From Candidatus Hodarchaeota archaeon (GTDB lineage: Archaea; Asgardarchaeota; Heimdallarchaeia; Hodarchaeales; Hodarchaeaceae), in assembly GCA_016839815.1 (NCBI GenBank), contig JAEOTM010000160.1:1-57359 (forward strand): a stretch of 57,359 nucleotides of DNA, written 5' to 3'. A program made the position numbers and the translations under genes. Position 1 is the first letter of the stretch. Each line of letters opens with the position of its first letter. Below the pieces are notes generated by a model that saw only the letters and a list, made by a program, of their open reading frames with translations, searched no databases and was not told where the DNA came from. Positions 25,628 through 57,105 of this stretch are shown here, piece after piece.

Positions 25628-25634
25628 TCTATTC

Positions 25635-26255: not shown

Positions 26256-26264
26256 TGTTTTAAC

Positions 26265-27008: not shown

Positions 27009-27200
27009 CTAAAACTATGGAAATAGGGAGGAAGATTACTTTTCTTCAAGAACACTCCGCTATTGTTTTTTCTCTTAGTCAGGGTAACATTACTTAGAAT
27101 GCTTAAAAAATCCTCACAATTAGGAAGAGAAAAAGCCCTTACTTAAGAGTAAATTCCAATCAATAACGTAATCTCTTATAATGAGCTTAATCAGTACTTA

Positions 27201-28433: not shown

Positions 28434-28615
28434 TTTGGGGTTAACTCTAATAACGCCTCTTTTCCTTAAATAGGGTACTATATTCCTATTGAGATGAGCG
28501 TGAATTTTATAAGGAAAACGGTCTTGTGGTCTCTACAAAGAAATAAGTTGCGCATATATCAGAATTCGGGGAAGATAGAGTAATCGTTACGCTTTGTTAA
28601 ATGTACATTCCACGT

Positions 28616-29620: not shown

Positions 29621-29805
29621 TTCTTAACACCAGTTTCCATAAAGCGCGAAAGATTACATTTAAACTTTCTTCTGAAATACTAGAAGAAATGGATAAGTTA
29701 TCCTACCTAGTATAAGTAAGATATGAAAATGATTATCAATAAGTGAATTTGATAAATCATTATTAAGGAATTAGTGGATTACCCATCCTTTTGATGTGAT
29801 CTCTC

Positions 29806-30555
29806 GTGAGTGAATCTGAATCAATAGTATGTCCAAATTGTAGTGAAAGAAGCCCAGCTGGGTATATTCTATGTCCTTACTGTGGATTTGATCTTACTAA
29901 AATTTTACGTCAAAGACAAAAAATAGGAATTACATTCAAAGAACGATTTTCGCGTATATGGAGAAGTCTTTCAGATCCCCGTGATAGTAAAATTCTGTTT
30001 AACGAGATTGGTGTCAACCCTGACCGTCTGGGTGTTATTATCTTATTGTACCTAGTTTCAGTTTCATATGCAACCGCTACAGTTGGAACACTCGTTATAA
30101 AGGGAAGCAGTTCAACTTGGCATGATTTCCATTTCTTCTACTTTTTGATTCAACCCTGGTTAACTGGAATAGCATTTTTCATTTTAGCAGTTTTTGGATG
30201 GATAGTCTCAACAATCATTATATGGCTAGTTGCTAAGACCCTTGGGGGAAAGGCAAGTTTGCGAGATACATACAGTATTGTAGGCTATTCGTTGGGCCCA
30301 CTGATTACTGCATGCTTGATTATTTCATTGGTTACGATTTTACTAGGTAAACCTCTTGATGTTACGGATACTCGTCTCTCCTCTGGTTATGCGATTTTTG
30401 ATATTATCTATTTACCGTTTTTAGCAATATGTGCTTATCATTGCGGGAATGGTCTTCAATCTGGTCATTTACTCAACCCTACATATTCTTATATACTTTC
30501 AGGCTCAGTAGCAGGAGGTTATGCCTTACTCTACCTTATCCCTGCTCTAGTTTGA
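29806..30555 (+). CDS. zinc-ribbon + polytopic membrane protein (Yip1-like)
   Basis: CPNCS...CPYCG N-terminal ribbon followed by five hydrophobic helices. Confidence 0.4.
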   Translation: MSESESIVCPNCSERSPAGYILCPYCGFDLTKILRQRQKIGITFKERFSRIWRSLSDPRDSKILFNEIGVNPDRLGVIILLYLVSVSYATATVGTLVIKGSSSTWHDFHFFYFLIQPWLTGIAFFILAVFGWIVSTIIIWLVAKTLGGKASLRDTYSIVGYSLGPLITACLIISLVTILLGKPLDVTDTRLSSGYAIFDIIYLPFLAICAYHCGNGLQSGHLLNPTYSYILSGSVAGGYALLYLIPALV

Positions 30556-30572
30556 GAATATATATTACAATC

Positions 30573-31694
30573 TCACGAATCAAATGATATTTCAAACTTT
30601 AAGGGTTTAGACAAAGAGGGATCTATAACACGAATAATATCTGCAGAACTAAGCAAATTTGAAAGTTTTTCCTTTGAAGAATCAATTGTTATTGTCCCAT
30701 GAATAATTATCATTTCCTTTCCGAGATTGAAGGAATAACGTAATTGATCTATAAAATCATCTATTTGTTGATCAATGGCTGATCTAACGGGAATAGCATT
30801 CAGTTGATATTCACTAGAACAGACAAAACAGTCTTCGCGGCGTGAGAGTTCGATAGCTGTAAATACACCTGCAGATCCATCCCAAAATAAGTATTCCTTA
30901 AGGGAAGGTAATTTTAAAAGAATTTTTAATGTTTCCTGCGCCATTAATCCACCTATCACGAATGAAACACTCGATACTGATGGAATAACTTCATCAACGG
31001 ACTCTTCTTGGCGACTTTCTTTCCTTTGCTCTCCAAAAGGTGTACAAGCCTTTTGTAATTCTTCTTCAGGAATTAAGGATTGACATTCCAAACAGGCATT
31101 CTTACGAGGAATAATGACCTGTAGATTTCCTAAGAATCCAAACATTCCTCCAGAAATTAAGGGAATGTTATGTTCAACTATGAAGGAATTTACCCATCTT
31201 CTATCTACGAATGTATCTAGCCCTTCTACAATAACTTCTGCTGTTTCTAGATCAGATGTTGGTACTACTTGAATTTTCATGTTCAAAGCTGTAACTTTTA
31301 AGTCTGAATTGATTTTCAACAACTCTCGAGCTGCTACTTCAACTTTGGATTTTCCAATATCTTCCATACGGAATAATAATTGACGATTCAAATTACTAAT
31401 TTCAATTGTATCAAAATCTACTAATATTAATTCTCCTACTCCAGCCATTGCTAGTGAAACAGCAGCTACTGAGCCCAATGCCCCCATACCTACAATTATA
31501 ACCTTACCGTCCCGAATTTTCTCTTGATCCCAGTTTTCGATAAGTGTTTGCCTATCATATCGAATTTTTTGAGATTCTTGAGTAAAATTGTCCATTTTTT
31601 TCCCCAGATTGAAGTAGGTAATAATCTTATAATTTCTCCAGCCTGTTTTATTTATATCTATAGAGATTTTATAATGTCTTGGAAACTGAAACAA
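30573..31694 (-). CDS. ubiquitin-activating E1-like enzyme (ThiF/MoeB/UBA fold)
   Basis: Nucleotide-binding GMGALGSVAAVSLAMAGVGELILVDFDTIEISNLNRQ, and a Cys-rich CxxC...CxxC insert. Confidence 0.85.
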   Translation of the reverse strand: MFQFPRHYKISIDINKTGWRNYKIITYFNLGKKMDNFTQESQKIRYDRQTLIENWDQEKIRDGKVIIVGMGALGSVAAVSLAMAGVGELILVDFDTIEISNLNRQLLFRMEDIGKSKVEVAARELLKINSDLKVTALNMKIQVVPTSDLETAEVIVEGLDTFVDRRWVNSFIVEHNIPLISGGMFGFLGNLQVIIPRKNACLECQSLIPEEELQKACTPFGEQRKESRQEESVDEVIPSVSSVSFVIGGLMAQETLKILLKLPSLKEYLFWDGSAGVFTAIELSRREDCFVCSSEYQLNAIPVRSAIDQQIDDFIDQLRYSFNLGKEMIIIHGTITIDSSKEKLSNLLSSADIIRVIDPSLSKPLKFEISFDS

Positions 31695-33153: not shown

Positions 33154-33723
33154 TCAAACTTGGGTTTGTTCAACCACTACTCTTCGATATTTTATCATTT
33201 CTTTGACCAAATATTTGAAAGCTGCTTCAAGATTCTCCCCACTACGAATCCCACCAGGATCTGTTGCTACAGTCCCAAAAATTTGATATGCATACTCCTT
33301 AAGATGTGCTTCAACAAATGCTTTGTGAATGAAATCAGGTGATAAAGCTATAGGCAAGTCTTGTTTATTAGCGATTACTAAAATTGGTATTTTTCCAGGG
33401 ATTAATCGTAATGCCTCATCTAACCATTGTTCGTCGTATCTGAAATTTCTTTGGGAGCTATCCACAACAAATACGATGCCATCAGCAGTTCGTACAAACC
33501 GTTCATGATACCGCATATCTAAGAAACGCTTTTGCCCACCAACATCAATTAACCCAATTACAGCAGAATCGATTTCAACATGGGATACTCCAAAGGCAAT
33601 CGTTGGTTTTATATTACTTGGTGCAGGATATCCATGTTCTAAGTAAAAAGCGATGGAGGATTTTCCTACTCCACTCGTACCAAGCAGTATTACCGAAAAA
33701 ATGTTCTCAGATGAGGTTTGCAT
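33154..33723 (-). CDS. Arf/Sar-family small GTPase
   Basis: G1 GTSGVGKSS, Arf-type G3 DVGGQ, G4 NKQD. Confidence 0.8.
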   Translation of the reverse strand: MQTSSENIFSVILLGTSGVGKSSIAFYLEHGYPAPSNIKPTIAFGVSHVEIDSAVIGLIDVGGQKRFLDMRYHERFVRTADGIVFVVDSSQRNFRYDEQWLDEALRLIPGKIPILVIANKQDLPIALSPDFIHKAFVEAHLKEYAYQIFGTVATDPGGIRSGENLEAAFKYLVKEMIKYRRVVVEQTQV

Positions 33724-37187: not shown

Positions 37188-37640
37188 CTATTTTTGGTTC
37201 CAGTGTGCATAACGTCGGATATAATCCACCACTTGATTCTGAAATAAACTACGATTCCGTTTCCACTGACGTGCTGCAGTCGCATTTAGAGGATCATCTG
37301 GATTTGGACTTGTTAAGAGAAATCGAATTGTTTCAACAACTTGAACCAAGCTATATGCAGGACTCCAATCCTTCCCGAGAATACCCACACATACCTTTTC
37401 TCTAAATATATTTACATGCCAAATAGGAGTCTTGAATCGAACCTTTGGTGGTTCAAATGGATAACTACGAGGGATTTTTATTTCTATTACAAACACCCCT
37501 CCTTCATATAACCCCGAACCAAGAATCTCGCCTTTCCAAAATGTTAAATCATTTCCCACAGATCGGAAGGTAGGTTGTTCCCGAGTTAGCTCTTGAGCTT
37601 CAATTGCCAGTCGATCCAACCATTCTTCTTCCGTTAACAA
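37188..37640 (-). CDS. ubiquitin-conjugating enzyme E2 (UBC fold)
   Basis: PPKVRFKTPIWHVNIFREKVCVGILGKDWSPAYSL is the UBC core with the active-site Cys, then the SPNPDDPLN helix. Confidence 0.8.
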   Translation of the reverse strand: MLTEEEWLDRLAIEAQELTREQPTFRSVGNDLTFWKGEILGSGLYEGGVFVIEIKIPRSYPFEPPKVRFKTPIWHVNIFREKVCVGILGKDWSPAYSLVQVVETIRFLLTSPNPDDPLNATAARQWKRNRSLFQNQVVDYIRRYAHWNQK

Positions 37641-42172: not shown

Positions 42173-43348
42173 CTATCCATTTAGTTCCAGTAGTTTCTGA
42201 GATTTTAACGCCATCAGGTATTCTTCATTAGTTGGTATTACTAGAACTTGAACTTGAGAATTATTGGCTGAAATTGTTGTTTCTTCTTCCCCAATTGCTT
42301 CTTTATTACTAGAAGAGTCTAGAATTACGCCTAAACTTCCTAATCCATCCATGATTAATTCTCGGAAATACGGGGATCTTTCACCTATTCCACCCGTAAA
42401 TATAATTACATCTAATCCTCCCAATACAACAGAGTAGGCTCCTATATATTTCTGAATCCGATAAACAGCCATTTGGATAGCTAACTGCTCTTTTGAGTGT
42501 CCGCTCTGAGCACGGCTCTGGATATCACGCATATCTCTAAATCGGCCTGTAATTCCTAAGAAACCACTTTGAGAATTCAGTTCATAATCAATTTGATCTA
42601 TTGACAAGTTTTCAGATCGCATCATGGCAAGCATTATTCCTGGGTCAAGATCCCCAGAGCGAGTACCCATTATCAGTCCTTCAAGAGGAGTTAATCCCAT
42701 ACTTGTATCGACAGATTTTCCATCGTAGATAGCTGTTACTGATGCTCCATTACCGAGATGTAAAACGATAATTCTCTTACAATTTTCTGATTCCAATTTA
42801 TCTATAGCTCTATTGGTTACATATTCAACAGATGTACCATGAAAACCATATCTTCGATAAGAGTATTTTTCATACCATTTTCTTGAGATCGCATACTGAA
42901 AGGCATATTCTGGAATAGTATTATGAAATGAGGTGTCAAAAACAGCAATATGAGGAATTTTTGGGAGTTTCTTCTTACTAGCACGAATTCCCATGAGATT
43001 TGCAGGATTATGAAGCGGAGCAAGCTCAGAAAGATTTTTTATTTGGTTTTCAATCTCATTATCAATGACCACTTCTTTCCGGAACTCTTCACCACCATGT
43101 ACAACTCTATGGGCTACCGCGGCAATATCCTCTAAATTGAAAAATTTTAAAACATAATCAAGAGCATCTTCATGGTTCTTACAGCTTATTTCCTTTTTAA
43201 GCTCTTTATCTTCACCATTATGGACAATTTGAGAATTGGATAAACCAATCCTTTCTACTAATCCTTTAGCTAATAGCTGTTCAGATTCCATATTGTAAAT
43301 CGAATATTTGAGAGAAGATGAACCAGAATTTATGGTTAGGATAATCAA
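42173..43348 (-). CDS. ackA: acetate kinase
   Basis: MIILTINSGSSSLKY N-terminal ASKHA motif, VHGG, HLGNG, IFTGGIGE signature motifs. 391 aa. Confidence 0.9.
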   Translation of the reverse strand: MIILTINSGSSSLKYSIYNMESEQLLAKGLVERIGLSNSQIVHNGEDKELKKEISCKNHEDALDYVLKFFNLEDIAAVAHRVVHGGEEFRKEVVIDNEIENQIKNLSELAPLHNPANLMGIRASKKKLPKIPHIAVFDTSFHNTIPEYAFQYAISRKWYEKYSYRRYGFHGTSVEYVTNRAIDKLESENCKRIIVLHLGNGASVTAIYDGKSVDTSMGLTPLEGLIMGTRSGDLDPGIMLAMMRSENLSIDQIDYELNSQSGFLGITGRFRDMRDIQSRAQSGHSKEQLAIQMAVYRIQKYIGAYSVVLGGLDVIIFTGGIGERSPYFRELIMDGLGSLGVILDSSSNKEAIGEEETTISANNSQVQVLVIPTNEEYLMALKSQKLLELNG

Positions 43349-43358
43349 CCAAAACCCT

Positions 43359-44807
43359 CTAATAAGTACCTGACTTCGAATCGGTTCCTTTTACGATAGC
43401 TATTGAGGCAGAAGCTCCAATTCTAGTTGCACCCGCGTTGATCATTTGTTCTGCAATTTCATGAGTTCTAATTCCACCTGCAGCCTTTACTCCCATTTCT
43501 GGACCTACTGTTTTGCGCATGAGTGCGATATCCTCAACTAATGCTCCTGCGGTGCTAAAACCAGTGGAAGTTTTCACAAAATCTGCACCACTTAATTTTG
43601 TTAAAAGGCTACCTTTCACAATTTGCTCCTTGGTTAGTAGAGCAGTTTCAAGAATAACTTTAACAATAGCTTTTCCAGCCGCAGCATTTACAACAGCTTG
43701 GATATCTTCCCTAACTAGATCGTCATTTCCTGATTTTAAAGCACCAACGTTAATCACCATATCTACTTCTTCTGCACCATTTGCTATAGCATCACGTGTC
43801 TCAATGGCTTTTACTGTTGGAGTTGTGGCTCCTAAAGGAAAACCAATTACGGTACACACTTTTACAGAACTACCTTTCAGATATTTTGCTGCTTTTGAGA
43901 CGTTTGTTGGATTAATACACACTGTGGCAAATTTATACGTAGCTGCTTCTTCACAAAGCTGTTTAATCTCTTCATCCGTCGCATCTGCACGTAAATTCGT
44001 GTGATCGATGTATTGAGCCAACCCCATATCATAACCGTTAATTCCCGTTTCAGAGGTTATCCTTGTGGCTCCTCCATTAACTAATGCTTTGACTGCAACT
44101 TGAGATTTTCCATCTAAGCCAATATCTTTTCCTGCAGTCCCAACTGTGTAGGTACGACTAGAGGGGGATGGAATATAAGAAGAAGGATCCTGATCGGTAA
44201 GATTTTGTACCTCTACAATTTTTATTCCCATAGATCTTAATTGATCTACAATCCCTTCAATTCTTCTATTCATAGCTGGTGGCACTTGATCTTTTTCAAT
44301 TTGACAACAATATATTGAATCATAAGCAGCAATCACAGGTTTTCCATACATCAATCCGAAAACAAGTGTAATTGTACCAAGAGTATCTGCATTTAACGCA
44401 GCCACCTTAGCTGCTGTATTTAAAGAAAGAATAGGCACATAGATAACATCAATTTTTCCTAAGATGTTTTCAAAATACTCTTCGGAATAATCTGTGATAA
44501 TCATAGCTCCTTCAGAGACTTTTCTAATATCAGGCATTCCGATGATTTTGATAGCTGCACGAGTCATAACGATGTACGTATTTGTATAGGATTTAGTTAT
44601 TAGTTCTATTTGATGCATTACTTCATTGATTTCTTTATTTCCACCGCATAGGAGAATCAAAGCAGAGGTTCCTGAGGAAATACTGTAATTTACTTTCTTA
44701 TTAGAAGTCTGTAACCTTGGGTTTGACTGTGTTGGAGGAGTAAGTGAATCCTGATCAAGCTTTCTCATAACCTCCTCTGTAATTTTTTGTATCATTTCAT
44801 TACTCAT
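43359..44807 (-). CDS. deoC: deoxyribose-phosphate aldolase (DeoC) with N-terminal encapsulation-peptide-like helix and ~200-aa extra domain
   Basis: C-terminal ~230 aa align with DeoC, including Schiff-base Lys in FVKTSTGF. N-terminal [17 protein letters not shown] amphipathic helix plus linker. Middle alpha/beta domain unassigned. Confidence 0.8.
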
Positions 44808-44826
44808 TTAGTATACCTTCTTGACC

Positions 44827-45117
44827 TTAACTTAATTCTATTTGTTTTCCGTTGACTTCGACGTAGTCCACGACACCTATTATTAATGCATCAACCGCTG
44901 CTTTATCATTTTGCATTATCCCTCGTATAGAGTTACCTTCGCGAATCACAAGAACACAATCTCCAATTCCGGCTTTTGCTGTATCCAACGCGATAATTGA
45001 TGGATCAGTAAACTCTCCTTTCAAATCTATCGGACGTACTACTAGTATCTTTCCATTTTCATGACTTTCCGTCTTGATTGGAGCTACTACATTCCCAATA
45101 ACTTTAGCAAGAATCAT
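44827..45117 (-). CDS. BMC vertex protein (BMC-P, EutN/PduN/CcmL family)
   Basis: 96 aa, MILAKVIGNVVAPIK...GIGDCVLVIREG...IIGVVDYVEV is the EutN fold. Confidence 0.85.
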   Translation of the reverse strand: MILAKVIGNVVAPIKTESHENGKILVVRPIDLKGEFTDPSIIALDTAKAGIGDCVLVIREGNSIRGIMQNDKAAVDALIIGVVDYVEVNGKQIELS

Positions 45118-45656
45118 TCTGACTCACTCACTACAGGTTCAGGCTCAATTTCTTGAATTTTTTTTGGTATTTTCTTTCTAACTGATTTTTTCCTAGGTTT
45201 TTTCTTAGGAATAGGTTTCGTTTCTTCATCTACTTCCGCAGGAGGAACTTTAGATTTAGGGATCGATTCTAGAGCTGTTTTTTCTGTAATTTCCCTGATT
45301 TCTTCCTCAGGTTCTTCCTCAAGTGGTTTCAGTGTGGGTGGTGGTGCTTTCTTCTTCCGTTTTCTCTGAGGTTTTCGTTTTGCACTTTTAGTTACATAAT
45401 ACTCCTCTACATAACCTACAATACACTCATCAATTGGAACAAGCTCTTTCGGAAATACAATAGCTGCTTCTTTTTTACTGACAACATATACAATATCTCC
45501 AGGTCCTGCCGTCTCGATTCCATCAGCAGCAACATAAGGGGTTCCTAAGGGCTGAAGATTATCGTCTAATCCTTGGACTATTAGAAGTCGTAATGAATTC
45601 AAACCTGGATCTTTTGTCGAGGCAACAACATTTCCTATTACTTTACCAAGTTTCAT
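45114..45656 (-). CDS. BMC-P vertex protein with ~90-aa Lys/Glu/Pro-rich C-terminal tail
   Basis: N-terminal 90 aa EutN-like (MKLGKVIGNVVAST...). C-terminal KRKPQRKRKKKAPPPTLKPLEEEPEEE...KKKPRKKSVRKKIPKK is low-complexity. ATGA overlap with the downstream gene. Confidence 0.8.
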   Translation of the reverse strand: MKLGKVIGNVVASTKDPGLNSLRLLIVQGLDDNLQPLGTPYVAADGIETAGPGDIVYVVSKKEAAIVFPKELVPIDECIVGYVEEYYVTKSAKRKPQRKRKKKAPPPTLKPLEEEPEEEIREITEKTALESIPKSKVPPAEVDEETKPIPKKKPRKKSVRKKIPKKIQEIEPEPVVSESE

Positions 45657-45660
45657 ATAA

Positions 45661-46119
45661 TCACGCTGACTTCAGATATTTTAATTCAATTTCAGTAATT
45701 TTATTCACTCTCGTTTCATGCCTTCCTCCACCAACTGGAGTAGTCAACCAGATTTTAACAATATTTTGAGCAATACCAGGTCCGATAACTCTTGCACCTA
45801 AAGTTAGGACATTTGAGTTATTGTGTTCTCGTGCAGAATTAGCAGTAAATTCATCAGTACATGGAGTAGCTCTGATTCCTTTTATCTTGTTGGCAATAAT
45901 TGCACTAGCAACTCCTGTTCCATCGATTATAATTCCTACGGATTCTAAGGACACAGCTACTGTCTGAGCCACTAATAAAGCGATATCAGGATAATCCACA
46001 GGATCAGTAGAATAACATCCATAATCTGTAACGTCATATCCTAATCCTTTAAGGAATTTAATCAAATCTTTCTTCAGATGATATCCTCCATGATCGGATC
46101 CAATTATTATTTTCTTCAT
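45661..46119 (-). CDS. rpiB: ribose-5-phosphate isomerase B / sugar-phosphate isomerase (RpiB/LacAB)
   Basis: MKKIIIGSDHGGYHLK...GCYSTDPVDYPD...GTGVASAIIANK...VLTLGARVIG is the RpiB family, 152 aa. Confidence 0.85.
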   Translation of the reverse strand: MKKIIIGSDHGGYHLKKDLIKFLKGLGYDVTDYGCYSTDPVDYPDIALLVAQTVAVSLESVGIIIDGTGVASAIIANKIKGIRATPCTDEFTANSAREHNNSNVLTLGARVIGPGIAQNIVKIWLTTPVGGGRHETRVNKITEIELKYLKSA

Positions 46120-46144
46120 TTGAATTCAACATGTTAAATAGACT

Positions 46145-46690
46145 TTAAAGTAGAGTTTTCACTAAATCGGGGTGAGGAGCAGGAATTATTGCTATAGAGA
46201 GTATTAATCCTTCGCCCTTTACGCGATTAACCCCTGCTTCCACAGCTGCTCTTACAGCACCAACTTCTCCTGTTAAGACTACGAAAGCTTTTCCACCAAT
46301 TGCACGACTCATCCGAATTTCGACTAGCCGCACCTGTGCACTTTTCACAGCCTCATCACCAACCATTATGGCCGTTGGAGCAGAATATGTTTCGACGACT
46401 CCGATTGCACCAACTTCATCGATATTTGTTGAACCTGCAATTGCGGGGAATACCTCAGGGTGAATGTTTGGTATCACTGTATAATTTACTAGGGTTTCAC
46501 CAGCGATTTCACTTCCAGCAATCAAGGAGCTTTGAACAGCTGCAACTGCTCCTTGAATTATTATCAAATACTTCCCAGGGCATACTGGTGATGCGAATAG
46601 CAGCTCTACGTCAGCTGTTTTTACAATCGTATCCGCACTTAATATACCTCGAGCAATTACATTCGTCTCAAGAACTCCGATTGCGCGCAT
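46145..46690 (-). CDS. BMC-T tandem-domain shell protein, PduT-like with conserved Fe-S cysteine
   Basis: Two BMC domains in 181 aa. SPVCPGKYLII matches PduT ICPGKFLL (the Cys that ligates the trimer 4Fe-4S). Second domain AIGVVETYS... Confidence 0.8.
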   Translation of the reverse strand: MRAIGVLETNVIARGILSADTIVKTADVELLFASPVCPGKYLIIIQGAVAAVQSSLIAGSEIAGETLVNYTVIPNIHPEVFPAIAGSTNIDEVGAIGVVETYSAPTAIMVGDEAVKSAQVRLVEIRMSRAIGGKAFVVLTGEVGAVRAAVEAGVNRVKGEGLILSIAIIPAPHPDLVKTLL

Positions 46691-46766
46691 TTATCTTACC
46701 TCTTTGACCGTAAATAAAGATGAAAGTAGTGAATATTAGCTGCTTTATCCACAGCTAATCGTTCAT

Positions 46767-47045
46767 TCAACCTTTCTTTGGAAGTATACTCTCAACTTCA
46801 TCATGAGGTCGTGGAATCACATGAGCTGAAGTTAATTCACCAACTTTTCGCGCAGCAACTGCACCAGCTTCAACAGAAGCTTTGACAGCACCTACATCAC
46901 CTCTAACCATTACAGTGACGAATCCACCGCCAATAACTTCGCGTCCCATTAGATGAACGTTCGCTGCTTTCACCATAGCGTCAGCCGCTTCAATAGATGC
47001 AACTAACCCTTTTGTTTCTATTAATCCAAGTGCTTCTTTAGCCAT
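46767..47045 (-). CDS. BMC-H hexameric shell protein (PduA/EutM-like)
   Basis: [27 protein letters not shown]...[23 protein letters not shown] is the canonical Pfam00936 sequence. Confidence 0.9.
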
Positions 47046-47071
47046 TTTTTATTTCACCAATTTTTCTTGTT

Positions 47072-48397
47072 TTATTTTGTCTTTTCAATGACAATTTCTT
47101 GTCCAATATGCCGGATAATCCCGCTGATACTCGCGTGAATTACCGCACCTAGTGACCCATCAGGAATTTTCCCAATGAGTGCACCTTTTTCTACCGTTTC
47201 TCCTACTTTCACAATGGGAATAGCAGGGTCACCGATATGTTGTTTGAGAGGTATTGAGACTTGTCGAACCTGCATCTTCCGTTTTTGAATTGGACAATCG
47301 TGATTATAACTAATTAAATCCAATCGAGAAATTAGTCGTTTTACAGGTAGTTTTCGGTATTCCCTCTCAGGATGAATCGATAGTACTTTTCGATTATGAG
47401 AATTTTTTAATCCTTCCGCTCTCAACTGTTCTTTAACTTCTGTCATCATTTTACAGGGATCTAAACCCATAGGACATCCATAATAAGTACAGGCTCCACA
47501 TTCTACACAAAGGAATGTTCCAGTCATATATTCAGGTCTTTCGGGTGCTCCCCAAGCTATACCTCGCATGACTTTATCAGGGTATAATTCATGACCTAAC
47601 AAAAACCTAGGACACACTTCTGTGCATAATTGGCATCTTATACAGGCCGCTTTGGTAACTATAACTTTAGAGGAAATCCTTTCATTTTTCATTTTTAAAA
47701 CGAAATGATCCTTAGGTAAGACTATAATTCCAGAAGTTAATTTTGTAATAGCTTCTTTAGGATCAATAGCTTTACCCATCATTGGACCATTAATTAATAT
47801 ACCATAATTATCGATTGTAGCTCCTCCTGCGGCTTTGATTGCATCTTTTATGGAGGTGCCTATTGGAAAATCCATAGTAGTGGGATTTTTTACTGCACCT
47901 GTAATAGTAACGTATCGAGAGACAATCGATTTGCCTTCAGAAGCTTCAGAAAGGTTTATTAACGTGTATACATTATTAACTACCACCCCTATATCAAGAG
48001 GAAGCCCACTTTCCGGAATTATTTTCCCTAAGGCCTCATACACTAGAACATGCTCATCTCCAGCAGGATAAACATCATCTAGTAGGAGAATTTCAAGTCG
48101 TGAATCTGTTTTTATTACCTGTTTTAGCTTCTTAATTGCAGCTTTATATTTTCTTTTTACTGCAATAATCCCTCTTTTTGCCCCAGTTGCTTTCATCCCT
48201 AATTGTAGTCCATTCACTAATTTTTCTGGGAAAGCTACCATTAATTGTTGATCTACTCGTAAAAGAGGTTCACATTCTGCTGCATTCACAATGTAGGTAT
48301 CCACTTTTGCAGATAGCTTTATATGAGTAGGAAAGCCAGCTCCTCCTGCTCCTACTATACCAGAATTGCGAGCCATTTCTACAATATCGGAACTCAA
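47072..48397 (-). CDS. PduS/RnfC-like Fe-S flavoprotein oxidoreductase
   Basis: GAGGAGFPT NAD(H)-binding motif and two 4Fe-4S motifs (CIRCQLCTEVCP, CVECGACTYYGCP). 441 aa. Confidence 0.75.
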   Translation of the reverse strand: MSSDIVEMARNSGIVGAGGAGFPTHIKLSAKVDTYIVNAAECEPLLRVDQQLMVAFPEKLVNGLQLGMKATGAKRGIIAVKRKYKAAIKKLKQVIKTDSRLEILLLDDVYPAGDEHVLVYEALGKIIPESGLPLDIGVVVNNVYTLINLSEASEGKSIVSRYVTITGAVKNPTTMDFPIGTSIKDAIKAAGGATIDNYGILINGPMMGKAIDPKEAITKLTSGIIVLPKDHFVLKMKNERISSKVIVTKAACIRCQLCTEVCPRFLLGHELYPDKVMRGIAWGAPERPEYMTGTFLCVECGACTYYGCPMGLDPCKMMTEVKEQLRAEGLKNSHNRKVLSIHPEREYRKLPVKRLISRLDLISYNHDCPIQKRKMQVRQVSIPLKQHIGDPAIPIVKVGETVEKGALIGKIPDGSLGAVIHASISGIIRHIGQEIVIEKTK

Positions 48398-48423
48398 CTA
48401 ATTTTGCCTCTTTTATGATAATA

Positions 48424-49851
48424 TCATATTATTCTGAAAGCATCTACAAGAGTACATCGTCTTTGTCTTGTAAAGGTTCTTGCAGAGGTAAGTCCTTCTC
48501 CTGTTGGACCTGCTATCGTCATGGTAGTGTACCCCTCTCCTCCGAAACCTATTCCAGCCAATGATGGTGCATTTTTAACGAAGATGGTTGTTTCTATATT
48601 TTTTGCTACTAAACTCATATTCCCTACTGAATCACTCCACATCATTGCTGTATGCTTAAATCCATGTTCTGCTTTCTTAGCCTTTCGTAACGCTTCCTCT
48701 ATTGTCTTAACCCGAACTATTGGGAGAACAGGCATTAACATCTCAGAAATCACAAATGGGTGTTCATCATCAGGCACCTCAGCAATTATTAAGCGAATAT
48801 TATCGCTAACTTGGATACCTATTCCCTCAAGAATTACTTTAGCATCTTTCCCAATGAAATCTCTATTGACGATAGGAAATCTTCCCTTCTTCCCTGTAAA
48901 CACAAGATTCTCCAATTGAATGATTTGGTCTCCAGTAAGTTCATATGCCCCATAATTCTTCATTTCTGCCTTTAATCGGTTCGTAATTGCGTCAAATGCA
49001 AAGACTTCCTTTTCAACAATGCAAACAATATTATTATCAAAACTTGCACCTTCCACAATCCCCCTCGCTGCTTTTTGAATATCAGCTGTATCATCCACAA
49101 TGACAGGAGGATTTCCTGGACCAGCACAGACTGCTTTCTTTCCAGATTGCATAGCCGCTTTAACAACCGCACTACCCCCAGTTACTACCAAGCATCTTAT
49201 TTTCTTGTGGGTCATTAGAGTCTGTGCTGACTTGATTGTGGGGGATATTGTTGACGTAAGCACATTCTCTGGACCTCCAGCTTCTAAAATTGCCCTATTC
49301 AATAATCTGACTGCTTCATTACTTGCTCTTTTAGCTGAGGGATGAGGATTAAAAACTACTGAATTTCCTGCAGTAACCATTGAAATTCCGTTGTTAATAA
49401 CGGTTGCAGTTGGATTGGTCGAGGGCGTAATAGATCCAATTACACCGTATGGGGCCATTTCAACTAATGTTAATCCTTTATCTCCTGTCCATGTATTTGG
49501 TACTAAATCTTCTAGCCCAGGAGTCTTACGGGCACATAATAAGTTTTTTGCAACCTTATCCTCTAATCGTCCTAAATTAGTCTCTTGAATTGCTAATTCA
49601 GCAAGATATCGGGAATGTTTGATGGCTGTATCACGCATTGATTGGATAATTTCTTTACGCTTTTCAAGTGAAAGATCCATTAATGCAGTTTGACTTTTTT
49701 CTGCAGCTTCAATGGCCTGCTCAATGTTCTGAAATATACCCCCTCCTGCAACGGCGGGGAGATTTTCTAAACCCGAATAAACCTGATAAGCACGTATTTT
49801 TTGTACAACAGTATTGACGATTTTGGCAATTTGTTGTTCATCATATGTCAT
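48424..49851 (-). CDS. CoA-acylating aldehyde dehydrogenase (EutE/PduP family) with N-terminal encapsulation-peptide-like helix
   Basis: Strong EutE-like blocks (GPGNPPVIVDDTADI, catalytic Cys in DNNIVCIVEKEVF, C-terminal TSARTFTRQRRC). N-terminal EQQIAKIVNTVVQKI amphipathic helix. Confidence 0.85.
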   Translation of the reverse strand: MTYDEQQIAKIVNTVVQKIRAYQVYSGLENLPAVAGGGIFQNIEQAIEAAEKSQTALMDLSLEKRKEIIQSMRDTAIKHSRYLAELAIQETNLGRLEDKVAKNLLCARKTPGLEDLVPNTWTGDKGLTLVEMAPYGVIGSITPSTNPTATVINNGISMVTAGNSVVFNPHPSAKRASNEAVRLLNRAILEAGGPENVLTSTISPTIKSAQTLMTHKKIRCLVVTGGSAVVKAAMQSGKKAVCAGPGNPPVIVDDTADIQKAARGIVEGASFDNNIVCIVEKEVFAFDAITNRLKAEMKNYGAYELTGDQIIQLENLVFTGKKGRFPIVNRDFIGKDAKVILEGIGIQVSDNIRLIIAEVPDDEHPFVISEMLMPVLPIVRVKTIEEALRKAKKAEHGFKHTAMMWSDSVGNMSLVAKNIETTIFVKNAPSLAGIGFGGEGYTTMTIAGPTGEGLTSARTFTRQRRCTLVDAFRII

Positions 49852-49899
49852 TTAATTACCTTCACTTAAATGTAATTTCTATGTTGAATGAGGGAATCA

Positions 49900-50190
49900 T
49901 CACTTTCTATAGCTTTCTTTTCCATTTATCTGTATGAAATCAATTATTGCTTGAATTGTTGCATCAGTTGGTCGATCTTTAGTCATTGCAGTCAGACGAG
50001 AGGAGCTACCTGTTACAACTAACACTAATTCATCTTCTCCTGCTCCAACTGCATCAATAGCTACAAAGGGAGAGCTCTCTGGTTTTAGGTCAGTCATGTC
50101 CACTGGTTGAACAATTAAGAGTTTAAAACCTTTAATACCGGCATCCTTCTCAGTACTTACTACATTTCCGATAACCTTACATACTTTCAT
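49900..50190 (-). CDS. BMC vertex protein (BMC-P)
   Basis: MKVCKVIGNVVSTEK...GAGEDELVLVVTGSS is the EutN/CcmL fold, 96 aa. Confidence 0.85.
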   Translation of the reverse strand: MKVCKVIGNVVSTEKDAGIKGFKLLIVQPVDMTDLKPESSPFVAIDAVGAGEDELVLVVTGSSSRLTAMTKDRPTDATIQAIIDFIQINGKESYRK

Positions 50191-50201
50191 GTATTTTTCA
50201 C

Positions 50202-50921
50202 CTAAATCTTAATGATTTTTATATCTAGCATTTTGGCCTTTTCGTGAGCTAGAGGCGTTATAATAGTTGAATGTGGTACAAATATTTCATGAGTTTTACC
50301 TTGTAAATTCTCTAAATAATCTTCAGTTATTAAATCTGGAATAGCGGGAGTATGTTTGACAAATTGGTCAGCTAAATCGTCAACATTTACTAATCTAAAT
50401 CCCATTTCAATCAAAGTGGAAAGGTGTTTGCTCAATTGATTGGTCAATATCCCAGACGGCCCATAAGCAAACGTTAGTTCTGTTGGAGGAAATGGAGTAA
50501 CTATATAAACTGGAATTTGAGATAACAAGCCTTGAAGTAATAAATTAACTGTTGAATTAGAATCTTCTAAATGGGTGATTTTGTTAGCAAGCTCAAAACT
50601 AAAAGCACCATACATTACTGATTCAAGGTCGTTGTAAAACTGTAAACAAAAATCTCCGCTCGATTTAATTATAATATCCATAGTTGGAATTGATGCAGCT
50701 CGTGATGTGAATTTGAGGGCATCATTAATATCTTTCTTAGTCCAAATTAGAATCTTCGCCTGTTTTTGAGCTAGTCTGACAAGAGCATTGAACAAATCAT
50801 CCAGTCCTTGCCCCATATGTGTTAAGATGCCTAGTATTTCATATGGTCCAAGTTTTTGGTCAGGTGTGAGAACACTTCTTACTTGCTGAGTTACAAGTGA
50901 TTCAAGCTCTTTCTCATTCAA
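50202..50921 (-). CDS. BMC-associated protein of unknown function with N-terminal encapsulation-peptide-like helix
   Basis: KELESLVTQQVRSVL amphipathic N-terminus plus linker, then a 200-aa alpha/beta domain with no recognised motif. Embedded between shell genes. Confidence 0.4.
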   Translation of the reverse strand: MNEKELESLVTQQVRSVLTPDQKLGPYEILGILTHMGQGLDDLFNALVRLAQKQAKILIWTKKDINDALKFTSRAASIPTMDIIIKSSGDFCLQFYNDLESVMYGAFSFELANKITHLEDSNSTVNLLLQGLLSQIPVYIVTPFPPTELTFAYGPSGILTNQLSKHLSTLIEMGFRLVNVDDLADQFVKHTPAIPDLITEDYLENLQGKTHEIFVPHSTIITPLAHEKAKMLDIKIIKI

Positions 50922-50938
50922 GATGATAACCTTCTTCC

Positions 50939-51259
50939 TTAATCTCTACCAGGATCTTCTTCTACACTTGAGGTCCGCTTTCTGACTTTCTCAATTAGCT
51001 CGATTGTCACCTTATCTGGCCGTGGAATCACATTGGTAAGTAACCCACAGGAAATCTTACGAAGTTGCTGTTTTGCAGCTTCAATTGCTTCATGAACTGC
51101 TGCAACCTCACCCTCAATGATCACTATCACAAGACCACCAGAAACACGTCTTAATGAAATTAGATTCACATCAGCAGCTTTCATAGCTGTATCTGTGGCT
51201 ACAATAGCACCGATGCGTCCACAAGTCTCCATGAATCCAATTGCGTCCATAATTTTCAC
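50939..51259 (-). CDS. BMC-H hexameric shell protein
   Basis: DAIGFMETCGRIGAIVATDTAMKAADVNLI...GGLVIVIIEGEVAAVHEAIEAA. 106 aa. Confidence 0.85.
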   Translation of the reverse strand: MKIMDAIGFMETCGRIGAIVATDTAMKAADVNLISLRRVSGGLVIVIIEGEVAAVHEAIEAAKQQLRKISCGLLTNVIPRPDKVTIELIEKVRKRTSSVEEDPGRD

Positions 51260-53112
51260 CTGAATGGAGAAAAAGCCTCTTTATCTAAATCCGTGATTAA
51301 TGTCCCCATTTCTCCATTATTCAGTGCTAAGGCATTACCCTCATCAAGGTCCAGATGCAACTCCAGACTATAATCAGGATGAACTCTAATCATGACCTCA
51401 TCTAATATTCCTGCTCGTGTTCCTGGAAATTTAACCGCTACTACCTGTTTATCATTTACACTTAGTCTTTGTGCATCTTTGGGTGACATGTGAATGTGTC
51501 GTGCAGCAAATATAACTCCTTTTTCTAGTGTGATTGCTCCTTTGGGGCCAAGAAGATGTACCCCAGGAGTACCTGCTAAATTTCCTGATTGACGTGTAGG
51601 TGGATTTATCCCTAAAACATACCCATCACTACGAGAAATTTCTACTTGGGTCTCTTTTCTAAAAGGACCAAGAATTCGTACCCCATAGATTGCTCGTTTA
51701 GGACCAATTAAATCAACTACTTCTTCACATGCATATTCTTTCGGCTGGGAAAGGGAATTTAGAGGAGTTAGAGATGCATCTTCTCCAAAAAGTTTATGGA
51801 AATCACTCTTTTCCAAATGAATATGCCGTGCAGAGAGAGAGACTGGAATCTGGTTATCGCTAATAACTTTGGACAACTCTTGAGTAATAATCCTTCTTAC
51901 TAAGTTTTTATTACTTGGAGAACTATTTCGGTGAGTAATCGGTTGATACTCACACCCTAGAGGACCACAATATCTACCTACATACTCCGCAGATGGTCGA
52001 TAAATTACAGGCTTAACTGAAGGTGTTTCTGGATATTTTTCTTCCAATACATGAGCTGTCCACCCTGCTACTCTTGATGTTGTAAAGATTGGTGTAAATA
52101 AATCTACAGGTATGTTAAGACTCGTATAAACTGTAGCTCCATATAAATCTACGTTGGGATAGATCCCCCGATTCTTTCTCCGCTTAAATTCAGCCTGCGT
52201 AATCTCAACCATTTTATTTGTAGTTTCGTACATCCACTTAGCAATTCCCCCCTTCTGTTTAACAAGATCACCTGCCATTTCCTTGAGTATTTTGGCCCTT
52301 GGATCAATTGTTCGATAAACAGCATGACCCATTCCCATAACTCGTTTACCAGCATTAAAACGATTCTTTACCCATTCTTCAATACTTGGGGCTTTTTTGA
52401 TTTCCATTAAACTCTCATAGACAAGATAATTCGCTCCTCCATGATATTGTCCTGATAATGATCCGATTGCTCCAGAAATAGCTGCATAGAGATCTGCTCC
52501 TGTTGAGGCGATGACTCTTGCAGTAAATGTGGATGCATTAAAGGAATGTTCAGCATGCAAAATTAATGAGACATCAAAGATTCTTGTTTCTTCCTTTGGG
52601 GGGATTTTTCCATGAAGCATAAAAAGAAAATTAGCTGCATAGTTTAATTTGGGATTCGGCGATATAGGATCCTTATTATTTCTTATTCGTTCCCATGCAG
52701 TCACTATTATAGGGAGAAGCGCAATGATTTTTACTGCAATATTTCGATCTGACTCTTTTGTCCCTCTCCCTATCTCAGTATCATATCCTGCTAATAAGGC
52801 TAAAGACGATTGAAGAACACTCATGGAAGGAGTTGCTTTTGTAGTTTTTTGTAAATGAGTTATCAACTCTGAAGGGAGCTTTTGGTTTGATCGAATTGAA
52901 GTCTTGAATGATTTCAATTTGTCTAAAGAGGGGAGTTTTCCAAACAAAAGTAAATATACTACTTCTTCGTACGTTGAATTTCTCGCTAAATCCTTTATGT
53001 CATATCCACGAATAAAAAGATTCCCCTTATCTCCTTCAATCAAGCAAATATTAGTATCTGCAACTTCGACTCCACGGAGACCAGTTGATTTGTGGCTATG
53101 TTCTTCAATCAT
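51256..53112 (-). CDS. fusion protein: citrate-synthase-like domain (N) + PduL-type phosphotransacylase (C)
   Basis: Residues 1-~390 carry citrate-synthase-family blocks (LILHAEHSFNASTF, GMGHAVYRTIDPRA, RVAGWTAHVLEE). Residues ~400-618 carry two PduL (PF06130) repeats (ARHIHL, ARHIHM). ATGA overlap with the downstream BMC-H. Confidence 0.75.
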   Translation of the reverse strand: MIEEHSHKSTGLRGVEVADTNICLIEGDKGNLFIRGYDIKDLARNSTYEEVVYLLLFGKLPSLDKLKSFKTSIRSNQKLPSELITHLQKTTKATPSMSVLQSSLALLAGYDTEIGRGTKESDRNIAVKIIALLPIIVTAWERIRNNKDPISPNPKLNYAANFLFMLHGKIPPKEETRIFDVSLILHAEHSFNASTFTARVIASTGADLYAAISGAIGSLSGQYHGGANYLVYESLMEIKKAPSIEEWVKNRFNAGKRVMGMGHAVYRTIDPRAKILKEMAGDLVKQKGGIAKWMYETTNKMVEITQAEFKRRKNRGIYPNVDLYGATVYTSLNIPVDLFTPIFTTSRVAGWTAHVLEEKYPETPSVKPVIYRPSAEYVGRYCGPLGCEYQPITHRNSSPSNKNLVRRIITQELSKVISDNQIPVSLSARHIHLEKSDFHKLFGEDASLTPLNSLSQPKEYACEEVVDLIGPKRAIYGVRILGPFRKETQVEISRSDGYVLGINPPTRQSGNLAGTPGVHLLGPKGAITLEKGVIFAARHIHMSPKDAQRLSVNDKQVVAVKFPGTRAGILDEVMIRVHPDYSLELHLDLDEGNALALNNGEMGTLITDLDKEAFSPFR

Positions 53113-53346: not shown

Positions 53347-54291
53347 GTGTTAATTAGAGGTTTTTCACTTGACACATCTTACCATTGTTCTGATTGTCAT
53401 TTGAAATGTTGTGCAACTGAATTCAATCTACCCCTGTGTGGATCAGAAAAATCGATTCTGAGTCAATATTACCCCGAATATCAGTTTTACCTTCAATCAA
53501 CTACAGATGGAGATTATATCCTTCGTGGGAATTCATGTCCGTTTTTAACAAACAATGGTTTGTGTCAGCTTCATTCTAAACATTTGAAACCACTCACATG
53601 TCAAATTTACCCGTTATTGTTTTGGCGATATTCCACCACCGATACTTTAGTCTCAATTCATCCTTGTCGGGGAAATGGGTTCAGTTGGTACTCAAGAAGT
53701 AATTCGCAGATCAGCAATCCTCAGCTTGAAGAACTTTTAACCAAGGCAAACATGCATTTTGAATCCTATTGGGGAGAAAATATAGACAAAAATAATCCCT
53801 ACGCAGGTATTTCCCCTACAAGGATTGAATCCCAAATAGATTACTATAATACCATTCCAGAAGACCAGTTATTGGTAAAAATAACAAGTGATTCTAATCT
53901 ACCTTCTCGATTTCTGGATTCTCAATCATCCTCTGAAAAAACCCTTATTATGATTAAAGATGGTATAGTAGGGAGATATCTAAATTCTGTACTTAATTGG
54001 CTGATTTGGAGTCCCGTAGGACTTCAGCTATCAATAAAAAACGCTCAAATGATATTTTCTGTAGCAGCTTTCTGGTTGATTAAACAGACAGAATTGAATC
54101 CTAAAATCAAAACCACTATCTTAAACAGTACTGACTATACCGAGCAAGTGGCTTCATATTATGCGAGTTCCATCCTTCCAACGTTCTGGCTTAAGATCGT
54201 CTCTGAGAGAGAAAATAAGGCTCTAAGTTCTTTCGCTAAAAAAGTATACTTAATTCTCATGGGAAAACTCTCTCAGGAGGATTTACTATAA
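53347..54291 (+). CDS. YkgJ/UPF0153-family Cys-rich (putative Fe-S/Zn) protein
   Basis: CSDCHLKCC (CxxCxxxCC) plus later Cys pairs. 314 aa. Confidence 0.45.
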   Translation: MLIRGFSLDTSYHCSDCHLKCCATEFNLPLCGSEKSILSQYYPEYQFYLQSTTDGDYILRGNSCPFLTNNGLCQLHSKHLKPLTCQIYPLLFWRYSTTDTLVSIHPCRGNGFSWYSRSNSQISNPQLEELLTKANMHFESYWGENIDKNNPYAGISPTRIESQIDYYNTIPEDQLLVKITSDSNLPSRFLDSQSSSEKTLIMIKDGIVGRYLNSVLNWLIWSPVGLQLSIKNAQMIFSVAAFWLIKQTELNPKIKTTILNSTDYTEQVASYYASSILPTFWLKIVSERENKALSSFAKKVYLILMGKLSQEDLL

Positions 54292-54643: not shown

Positions 54644-55231
54644 TCAGATTTTGTTTCTGTCTATATTTCTTACTACTCCATACTTTCCTCTAGAGTAAGT
54701 TAGCATTCCAGGATATCCATCTGTTTTCCACTGATCGTCAAGATGTAGTGCAACAATTCTTCCAAGGAATAAATCATGTGTACCCAGACTGATGATTTGG
54801 TCTACCTTACATTCCATACTAGCTGGGCATTCTTTAATTTGAGGAACATCAACAATTTTACTTTTCACTCTAGTAAAATTACATACTGACCACTTATCAA
54901 TCTCTCGTCCAGATTTAGTTCCACAGAGTTCCACTTCTTTAAGTATTAATTCTGTAGGAAAGTTGATTACAAATTCTTCTGTCTCCTTAATTATATCGTA
55001 AGTATATCTTTCAGGTCTTACGCCTATTGAGACTATTGGAGGATTTGAACAACTCGTTCCTGCCCAAGATAGTGTTATTATTGATTCTTTTGTATTGTGT
55101 TTTGCTGATACTAAGATCACAGGATTAGGATAAAAGAACGTACTTATACTTACCTCATTCTTCATAGATAAACTCTTCCTATACTTCCTTTTATGGAATA
55201 ACTTGAAATTGATTGTCTTATCAATTCCCAT
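54644..55231 (-). CDS. flavin reductase-like FMN-binding protein
   Basis: NPVILVSAK...SIITLSWAG...PPIVSIGV...TEEFVINFP...CGTKSGREIDKW is the flavin_reduct split-barrel pattern. Confidence 0.7.
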   Translation of the reverse strand: MGIDKTINFKLFHKRKYRKSLSMKNEVSISTFFYPNPVILVSAKHNTKESIITLSWAGTSCSNPPIVSIGVRPERYTYDIIKETEEFVINFPTELILKEVELCGTKSGREIDKWSVCNFTRVKSKIVDVPQIKECPASMECKVDQIISLGTHDLFLGRIVALHLDDQWKTDGYPGMLTYSRGKYGVVRNIDRNKI

Positions 55232-56214: not shown

Positions 56215-57105
56215 TTAGAGGTAGGTTTCAGGTTCCTTTCTGTCTGAGTAACCTTTATTCAGATCACTTTGTGATTTGAGGACGCGGTGGCTCATAACGC
56301 GTGCACCAGTGGGACAGTTTTTGACGCAGGCACAACACCAGATACATGCATTGTGGTCGGTAGAAATCAACCGAAGATTATAACCAATCATTGGTGAGGG
56401 ATTGGATGATACATGTTGGATTCGAATCGCGGCCGTAGGGCATACATCAACACATGTTCCGCATTTCGTACATTGGTCCTCGCTGGTGGAAGGAGTGGCT
56501 AATTCGCCGTAGTCGTACCAGGTGAGATTAGCCCGCATCGACAACGAGTATGGGCTTGTGCCAGGGGGAGTTACGGGGGAGAGGTTCTCAATCGTATCAG
56601 CTTTCGCATATTTGGCTCGGATCTGTTTTCCAAAGGCTTCTGCTTTGGCGAGATCCTTTGCGTCTGGTCGTCCATGCGCGGTTGGCACCTCTGGGAGGCT
56701 AAACGAGTGTTCACATAAGAAGACGCCCGCAGCGATGGGTTGGAATCCTACTTCCGAGACGATGTCACCTAATTCATATAATGCATCCTCATAGGCTCGG
56801 TTGCCGTAGGTAACCACAATGACGGCGGGGATTTTGTGTGGACGTTTGGTACCGTAGGGTTCTCGGTTGCTTGTTAGCCTGCGTATCCGATAGGCAGCTT
56901 CAGTAGGTACACGCCCTGCATAGACTGGTACAGAGATGATGGTGAGCTCATCGGTGAATTCTGAAAATTTCTGAGTTCGTGCACTCGGTGGGGTCAAATC
57001 AACATATTCTATGGGGGCTTGGATGCCTTTGGCGATAGTTTCAGCCACTTTTCTTGAGCCCCCCGTTGGGGAGAAACTGATAACTTGTACTGCCTTAATT
57101 TTCAA
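56215..57105 (-). CDS. flavodoxin-like domain + 2x[4Fe-4S] ferredoxin-domain protein
   Basis: N-terminal flavodoxin-like fold, C-terminal CTKCGTCVDVCP and CIWCCACVKNCP. Gene GC markedly higher than its surroundings. Confidence 0.7.
   Translation of the reverse strand: MKIKAVQVISFSPTGGSRKVAETIAKGIQAPIEYVDLTPPSARTQKFSEFTDELTIISVPVYAGRVPTEAAYRIRRLTSNREPYGTKRPHKIPAVIVVTYGNRAYEDALYELGDIVSEVGFQPIAAGVFLCEHSFSLPEVPTAHGRPDAKDLAKAEAFGKQIRAKYAKADTIENLSPVTPPGTSPYSLSMRANLTWYDYGELATPSTSEDQCTKCGTCVDVCPTAAIRIQHVSSNPSPMIGYNLRLISTDHNACIWCCACVKNCPTGARVMSHRVLKSQSDLNKGYSDRKEPETYL

Follow-up and report, generated by a model that had tools for sequence, protein, structure and literature searches.

A probable electron-export module in the SPU-type microcompartment operon of a Hodarchaeales archaeon

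The idea that electrons pass from PduS to PduT and out of a microcompartment dates from 2010 (PMC2982820). In Citrobacter freundii, PduS co-purifies with PduT, and the midpoint potentials of the flavin, the combined PduS cofactors, and the PduT cluster (−262, −150, and +99 mV, respectively) run downhill in the outward direction (PMC2982820). The arrangement was generalised and tested in 2024 by Sutter et al. as the MNdh/BMC-T^SE module of bacterial microcompartments (BMCs; PMC11626177), and 2024 also saw it noted for sugar-phosphate-utilisation (SPU) loci (PMC11585597). The purified Clostridium botulinum complex oxidises NADH with a kcat of ~20 per s, NADH reduces its BMC-T cluster as seen by electron paramagnetic resonance (EPR), and voltammetry resolves three clusters and FMN; the modelled bacterial clusters lie 7–9 Å from one another in a straight line from FMN (PMC11626177). 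For the archaea, Du et al. (bioRxiv, Nov 2025) reported 'archaeal microcompartments' (AMCs) in 66 of 111 Hodarchaeales genomes and described, for the operons of this order, an MNdh/AMC-T^s (CPGK) electron conduit with the same motifs and with an AF3 complex model, their experiments using the operon of B3_Heim (PMC12747264). Here, we analysed a 57,359-nt stretch of DNA from a Candidatus Hodarchaeota archaeon (contig JAEOTM010000160.1, assembly GCA_016839815.1; hereafter the window), which carries a 13-gene SPU-type microcompartment operon (42173–53112; this and all operon coordinates below are on the minus strand). The operon encodes a 181-aa tandem-BMC shell protein (BMC-T; 46145–46690) and a 441-aa PduS/RnfC-like oxidoreductase (MNdh; 47072–48397), and this pair likely represents the MNdh/BMC-T^SE electron-export module of an SPU microcompartment in a Hodarchaeales archaeon. 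The module is real, supported by homology, and already known, because it was tested in bacteria in 2024 (PMC11626177) and described in Hodarchaeales in 2025 (PMC12747264).

The shell protein and the oxidoreductase

The BMC-T carries two PF00936 domains in one chain (E = 3.7e-43) and matched, over its whole length, the PduT structures of C. freundii (3pac; E = 2.6e-41) and Salmonella (PduT C38S, 3n79; E = 1.3e-38) and the D. hafniense homologue 3nwg (E = 7.6e-48). The annotated wild-type Salmonella pdu operon, found by tblastn against plasmids, was used for direct alignments of both proteins. Wild-type Salmonella PduT was 40% identical to the BMC-T with a single one-residue N-terminal offset, and Cys37 of the latter (SPVCPGKY) aligned with PduT Cys38 (KTICPGKF), as it also did with Citrobacter PduT. 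A first-pass annotation of this DNA, made from the letters alone, had recognised the PduT cysteine context in a tandem-BMC protein and had named a lack of homology to Cys38 as the result that would speak against it; this test fails to refute the proposal, because Cys37 aligns with Cys38 both in the alignments with the PduT structures and in the direct one with wild-type Salmonella PduT.

Cys37 is the sole cysteine of the protein and was invariant in all 121 homologues compared, as was G39, while P38, K40, and Y41 were kept in 111, 120, and 118 of them, respectively. The CPGK motif lies at 46571–46582 (Cys37 codon, 46580–46582). In the AlphaFold2 monomer (pLDDT 94), Cys37 sits in a loop between strands 28–35 and 41–48, and the model superposed on 3nwg (TM 0.96, 1.1 Å) and on PduT 3pac (TM 0.92, 1.9 Å), the latter being the structure of a 'trimeric BMC protein with 4Fe-4S cluster binding site'. 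From these matches, Cys37 is predicted to line the trimer pore and to be the pore ligand of a [4Fe-4S] cluster common to the three subunits. The single-layer PduT-type fold, the CP(G/S)K motif, and an MNdh within two genes together place the protein among the BMC-T^SE shell proteins.

The MNdh combines, in this order, a Complex1_51K FMN/NAD(H) domain (PF01512, residues 10–149), an SLBB domain (PF10531, 162–208), a 4Fe-4S dicluster domain (Fer4_17, 251–313), and a C-terminal RnfC_N barrel-sandwich domain (PF13375, 366–438; 47084–47302). This order is circularly permuted relative to RnfC, the structures of which carry the RnfC_N domain N-terminally, aligning to residues ~20–90. The glycine-rich loop GAGGAGFPT of the FMN/NAD(H)-binding domain (residues 16–24; 48326–48352) aligned with GLGGATFPT of RnfC and was conserved in 117–118 of 120 sequences at most positions and in 114 at Thr24, the remainder being mainly gaps. 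The two cluster motifs, CIRCQLCTEVCP (C252, C255, C258, and C262; CxxCxxCxxxC; 47609–47644) and CVECGACTYYGCP (C297, C300, C303, and C308; CxxCxxCxxxxC; 47471–47509), are intact, and all eight of their cysteines were invariant in the 120 aligned sequences. Their spacings, including the unusual x4 in the second motif, equal those of C. freundii PduS (PMC2982820), and Salmonella PduS showed the same x4 spacing in our alignment. Overall, the MNdh and the annotated PduS of Salmonella were 42% identical when aligned, and the tblastn match between them (40.9%) was collinear over 99% of the query; the MNdh lacks a 12-residue extension that PduS has at its N-terminus. The first-pass annotation had placed a PduS-like flavo-Fe-S enzyme two genes from the shell protein, which proved correct, one 92-aa BMC-H gene lying between them. 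Its reading of the glycine-rich loop as an NADH site stood only in part: the loop is present at 48326–48352 but is not a pure NADH site, because it belongs to an FMN/NAD(H)-binding PF01512 domain common to NuoF and RnfC.

Sequence and Foldseek comparisons against the structure database found no solved PduS or MNdh structure. The best solved match of the MNdh's AlphaFold2 model (pLDDT 91) was RnfC chain 9eri_C (E = 4.6e-27, TM 0.65, rmsd 2.8 Å), which covered only 339 aligned columns because the RnfC_N domain is C-terminal in the MNdh and N-terminal in RnfC. RnfC (9eri_C, 7zc6_C) shares with the MNdh an FMN/NADH domain, an SLBB domain, and two 4Fe-4S clusters, but RnfC docks on membrane subunits, whereas the predicted partner of the MNdh is a shell trimer. 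The permuted domain order, the eight cysteines and glycine-rich loop, and the location in a BMC locus with an acylating aldehyde dehydrogenase are those of the MNdh family. A B12-dependent signature enzyme with PduO or PduGH, as expected for PduS in the strict sense, is absent from the locus, as are the N-terminal RnfC_N domain and rnfABDEG neighbours expected for RnfC. The enzyme should therefore be called MNdh and neither a cobalamin reductase nor an Rnf subunit. The E-values and the invariance of these features in the shell protein and the oxidoreductase are far beyond chance. By analogy with the bacterial enzymes, the MNdh would bind FMN and two [4Fe-4S] clusters, oxidise NADH, and reduce the BMC-T cluster from the luminal face.

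Pairing of MNdh and BMC-T

The gene between the pair, BMC-H2 (92 aa; 46767–47045; PF00936, E = 7e-29), encodes a hexamer shell protein, the intergenic gaps are 26 and 76 nt, and the BMC-T gene is downstream of the MNdh gene. To place this arrangement, GTDB species genomes were scanned with the MNdh alignment and the best 80 loci were kept; no Hodarchaeales loci were among these, and the Hodarchaeales contexts were taken separately from three contigs, namely NJBF01000010.1 of B3_Heim (GCA_003144275), the 3.16-Mb contig CP070760.1, and a third carrying a type II operon (loci L001, L082, and L083, respectively).

A tandem-BMC gene with a cysteine aligned to Cys37 (C[PSA]G[KR]) was present in 69 of the best 80 loci, the motif being CPGK in 42, CSGK in 23, CAGK in 3, and CPGR in 1. 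All but one of the 69 genes (68) were downstream of the MNdh gene on the same strand, and 64 were directly adjacent to it. The other 11 loci comprised five in which the contig ended within 540 nt of the MNdh gene, four without any BMC genes, and two BMC loci with only ~2 kb of downstream sequence. In ~2,170 bacterial loci, the MNdh and BMC-T genes are adjacent in 97% and two genes away in 1.8%, and the CP(G/S)K motif is universal (PMC11626177). Our survey of the best 80 loci thus reproduces the published pairing rule on a small scale.

The window pair differs from bacterial MNdh/BMC-T^SE pairs in its archaeal host and in having a BMC-H gene between its members, which is seen in only 1.8% of bacterial loci. 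Among the Hodarchaeales contigs, one BMC-H gene separates the pair in the window, B3_Heim, and CP070760.1, and two do so in the type II operon, BMC-H2 holding the same position in all three compared contigs. The insertion is therefore a habit of the Hodarchaeales lineage that is rare in bacteria, and it could reflect a modified docking platform.

Two further observations were made in the survey. Many satellite-like pairs of MNdh and a CSGK-type BMC-T, with no aldehyde dehydrogenase or BMC-P gene within 10 kb, were seen in Ignavibacteriota, Acidobacteriota, Bacteroidota, Verrucomicrobiota, and others (loci L023–L026, L030, L040, L046, L050, L051, L054, L058, L060, L063, L069, L076, L079, and L081); 'satellite' MNdh/BMC-T^SE modules have been described by Sutter et al. 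(PMC11626177). The best match to the window MNdh among the GTDB representatives (55% identity) was in an 18-kb contig labelled as Thermoplasmatota (JASLWR010000064.1, locus L002), which holds an SPU-type locus where a CPGK BMC-T gene adjoins the MNdh gene; the order JASLWR01 is listed as carrying BMC genes (PMC12747264).

Proposed electron export and competing explanations

The operon encodes a CoA-acylating aldehyde dehydrogenase (AldDh; 48424–49851; NF011927, 656 bits, with the cut-off at 403; PF00171) directly upstream of the MNdh, with a gap of 26 nt, and a deoxyribose-5-phosphate aldolase (DERA) with an extra N-terminal domain (Flav-DERA; 43359–44807). No alcohol dehydrogenase was found when all but two (124 and 137 aa) of the window open reading frames (ORFs) of at least 120 aa were scanned, and neither the operon nor the rest of the window yielded a B12-dependent enzyme, diol or ethanolamine lyase, PduO-type adenosyltransferase, or reactivase. 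The locus fits the class of MNdh loci without an alcohol dehydrogenase, which numbers 361 (PMC11626177), and shares with the module of Sutter et al. the four permuted domains, the two 4Fe-4S motifs, the CP(G/S)K BMC-T^S, and the AldDh (PMC11626177). What the analysis shows in support of the assignment is the homology and fold of the two proteins, the integrity of their cofactor motifs, their place in the operon, and the co-occurrence of their genes across genomes. Because the operon has an AldDh and neither an alcohol dehydrogenase nor a B12 enzyme, electron export for NAD+ recycling is the best reading, and the earlier suggestion that cofactor is regenerated by electron export rather than by a second dehydrogenase gains support from the same gene content.

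In the proposed mechanism, DERA inside the shell would free acetaldehyde, which the acylating AldDh would convert in the lumen to acetyl-CoA with reduction of NAD+ to NADH. NADH would be unable to pass the shell pores and would be oxidised at the FMN of the MNdh, which would dock on the luminal side of the BMC-T trimer. Electrons would then run through the two [4Fe-4S] clusters of the MNdh to a third one in the trimer pore, held by three Cys37 residues, and from there to a cytosolic acceptor, which may be O2 or a protein of the ferredoxin or flavodoxin type. In this way, NAD+ in the lumen would be restored with no acetaldehyde spent on alcohol. The C. botulinum pair is the only one for which electron transfer has been demonstrated; we infer it for the archaeal pair, as we do the cofactor loading of the archaeal proteins, the docking on the inner face, the outward flow, and the kind of acceptor.

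Several points weigh against this scheme. Half of the bacterial AF2 complex solutions set the MNdh on the outer face of the shell protein (PMC11626177), and the experiments of Du et al., in which archaeal shells were assembled, did not include an electron-transfer assay (PMC12747264). For the archaeal MNdh/BMC-T pair, the mechanism is drawn by analogy with bacteria, and the cytosolic acceptor is a putative one. In the window, the MNdh and BMC-T genes are not direct neighbours, in contrast to 97% of bacterial loci (PMC11626177). Our AlphaFold2 models are of monomers, and the pore geometry is taken from homology to the PduT structures. Finally, the BMC-T scored below the cut-off of the NCBIfam PduT equivalog TIGR02526 (124.4 against 250.3 bits); it is PduT-like in fold and motif and not a strict Pdu/Eut equivalog, and BMC-T^SE is the fitting name for it.

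The direction of flow could also be the reverse, with low-potential cytosolic electrons entering through the BMC-T cluster so that the MNdh makes luminal NADH and acetyl-CoA is turned into acetaldehyde and then, by aldehyde condensation, into deoxyribose-5-phosphate. DERA, aldehyde dehydrogenases, and RnfC-type enzymes are all reversible in principle, and the sequence does not fix the direction of electron flow. However, the phosphotransacylase (PTAC), acetate kinase, and citrate synthase of the operon all consume acetyl-CoA, which argues for a catabolic direction, and both the C. freundii potentials (combined PduS cofactors, −150 mV; PduT cluster, +99 mV; PMC2982820) and the reduction of the BMC-T cluster by NADH in EPR (PMC11626177) point outward, making inward flow quite improbable. 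We also consider it improbable that the pore cluster is a redox- or oxygen-sensitive gate or a supply route for Fe-S, with the BMC-T a mere anchor for the MNdh. Mutations of the pore cysteine have been linked to raised permeability, and in PduT the region around the pore is disordered when no partner is present (PMC11626177), but the cysteine-bearing BMC-T strictly accompanies the MNdh, both among our best 80 loci and in the ~2,170 published ones, and the modelled clusters lie in line from FMN at 7–9 Å spacing, with NADH reducing the one in the BMC-T (PMC11626177).

The original function assignment of PduS, kept in the annotation of the Salmonella protein, is 'cobalamin reductase', which, together with the 42% identity of Salmonella PduS to the window MNdh, raises the question of whether the enzyme regenerates B12 for an encapsulated B12 enzyme, with PduT an accessory. 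The Salmonella pdu operon is indeed B12-dependent and has the PduQ alcohol dehydrogenase and PduO, with pduS and pduT adjacent, unlike the window, where the two proteins are nevertheless collinear with PduS and PduT and keep all cluster cysteines and the Cys38 equivalent. The signature enzyme of the window operon is a class I aldolase (TIGR00126 deoC, 289 bits), which does not need B12; the lyases, reactivase, and PduO-type adenosyltransferase were not found among the window ORFs scanned, whereas pduO is present in the Salmonella locus; and MNdh occurs in many non-B12 BMC types and oxidises NADH without cobalamin (PMC11626177). A role as cobalamin reductase is thus very unlikely. It is hardly credible that the gene encodes a genuine RnfC of a membrane Rnf complex and lies beside shell genes by coincidence: the protein passed the cut-off of the NCBIfam rnfC subfamily TIGR01945 (262 against 246 bits), its best solved matches are RnfC chains, and its relatives are publicly annotated as RnfC, but its RnfC_N domain is C-terminal, the structural match spans ~339 columns at TM 0.65, no RnfA, B, D, E, or G genes were found in the window, and the gene lies inside a tightly packed shell operon kept in four archaeal contigs.

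Operon context, host, and flanking genes

Transcription of the operon begins with CS-PTAC (51256–53112), a citrate synthase fused to a PduL-type phosphotransacylase, and proceeds through BMC-H1 (50939–51259), a 239-aa protein without a family match (50202–50921), BMC-P1 (49900–50190), the AldDh, MNdh, BMC-H2, and BMC-T genes, RpiB (45661–46119), BMC-P2 with a K/R-rich tail (45114–45656), BMC-P3 (44827–45117), and Flav-DERA, ending with the acetate kinase AckA (42173–43348). Gaps between the genes range from −4 to 76 nt. DERA, AldDh, RpiB, BMC-H, BMC-T^s, and three BMC-P in one operon identify it as an SPU metabolosome and as a Hodarchaeales AMC of type I. It has DERA, RpiB, AldDh, PTAC, and three BMC-P in common with the bacterial SPU BMCs (Dwyer et al. 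2024, PMC11585597), all subtypes of which except SPU6 contain a PduS homologue (PMC11585597). Unlike those, it is archaeal and has a citrate synthase–PTAC fusion, a flavoprotein-like domain on DERA, and a K/R-rich disordered tail on one pentamer.

The operon host is an Asgard (Hodarchaeales) archaeon, a point that escaped the first-pass annotation and is the more striking feature of this locus. A mis-binned bacterial contig is excluded by the eukaryote-like genes of the window, by the labels of the nearest relatives of the BMC-T and MNdh (Hodarchaeales or Heimdallarchaeota), and by synteny with B3_Heim and CP070760.1. The window encodes Vps28, EAP30/Vps36, an ESCRT-II subunit, two Snf7 proteins, and Vps4, as well as a ThiF-type E1, two E2 ubiquitin-conjugating enzymes, Ras/Arf-type GTPases, TFIIB, RadA, and Yip1. 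The eukaryote-like cluster (ESCRT, ubiquitin, Ras/Roc and Arf-like GTPases, and Yip1) occupies 19711–31694, 33154–33723, and 37188–37640, ~11–22 kb from the operon. Synteny with the B3_Heim contig covers the operon together with its neighbouring genes (MetRS, E2, zinc-ribbon protein, and flavin reductase), and the operon recurs in CP070760.1 with part of the flanks (MetRS, zinc-ribbon protein, and the Cys-rich gene described below).

The B3_Heim AMC type I operon (PMC12747264) is the closest described relative: its gene order and neighbours, its K/R-rich BMC-P2 tail, and its Flav-DERA fusion region are shared with the window, and its MNdh and BMC-T are 89 and 96% identical to ours, respectively. 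The window genome is nevertheless a different one, an exact-sequence contig look-up having returned no gene whose product is identical to the window BMC-T or MNdh. In the window, citrate synthase and PTAC form a single 618-aa ORF (residues 11–373 and 423–597, respectively), a fusion reported in 'some lineages' (PMC12747264); the two are separate genes in CP070760.1. The fusion gives two alternative CoA-recycling routes in one polypeptide.

Some accessory domains of the operon deserve description. The N-terminal domain of Flav-DERA (residues 1–250) matched PF02441 at 18.4 bits, below the cut-off of 22.7, and had no relative in the PDB, so the 'flavoprotein' label is weak; weak relatives occurred in ~14 bacterial MNdh loci (tblastn, 43–81 bits). 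PF02441 proteins have been floated as possible electron acceptors by Sutter et al. (PMC11626177), which would be a strange role for a domain joined to cargo of the lumen. We rejected a relationship between this domain and the 239-aa protein, as BLASTP gave only short patches. The only hit of the latter, which belongs to no Pfam family, was TIGR02536, a hypothetical eut protein, matched faintly towards the C-terminus (E = 1e-4); the 239-aa protein was conserved in the three Hodarchaeales contigs and weakly in the Thermoplasmatota-labelled one. The BMC-P2 tail comprises ~95 residues (~85–180) rich in K, R, P, and E, and the AMC-P2 tail has been reported as a DNA/RNA-binding disordered region (PMC12747264).

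A divergent gene adjoining the operon (53347–54291, plus strand) encodes a 314-aa Cys-rich protein (CxxCxxCC ... CPFL ... C ... C ... HPC) without a significant Pfam match (DUF3109, E = 0.034). Orthologues hold the same position in B3_Heim (2854–3759 of locus L001) and CP070760.1 (4089–5045 of locus L082) but not in the type II contig. The operon screen of Du et al. kept same-strand genes only, which is why a divergent gene would escape it, and the Cys-rich gene is not mentioned there (PMC12747264). Its product may bind a metal or Fe-S and act as a regulator or redox partner, its tie to the conduit being its position. Beyond the operon lie genes for a flavin reductase-like protein (54644–55231, minus strand), found also beside the operon in B3_Heim (1996–2505 of locus L001) and not in CP070760.1, and for a 296-aa protein with a 2x[4Fe-4S] ferredoxin domain (56215–57105, minus strand), which are possible cytosolic electron partners. 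It is conceivable, though on present evidence unlikely, that the Hodarchaeales conduit feeds a dedicated cytosolic acceptor, the candidates being the Cys-rich protein, the flavin reductase, and the 296-aa protein; if so, the compartment would be wired to a specific archaeal redox pathway and not to a generic ferredoxin pool.

What this window contributes is one more intact and syntenic case, on a contig that is clearly archaeal, together with a small and independent test of the co-occurrence rule. Should the module operate in the proposed way, the shell would both separate two NAD pools and serve as an electron conduit, and all of the acetaldehyde could become acetyl-CoA, and from it ATP or citrate, instead of half being lost to ethanol. 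In an Asgard archaeon, this would mean that a bacterial-type organelle exports reducing power in a lineage that is among the closest archaeal relatives of eukaryotes, with a bearing on ideas about the energetics of eukaryogenesis; the points on the conduit and on Asgard archaea have already been published (PMC11626177, PMC12747264).

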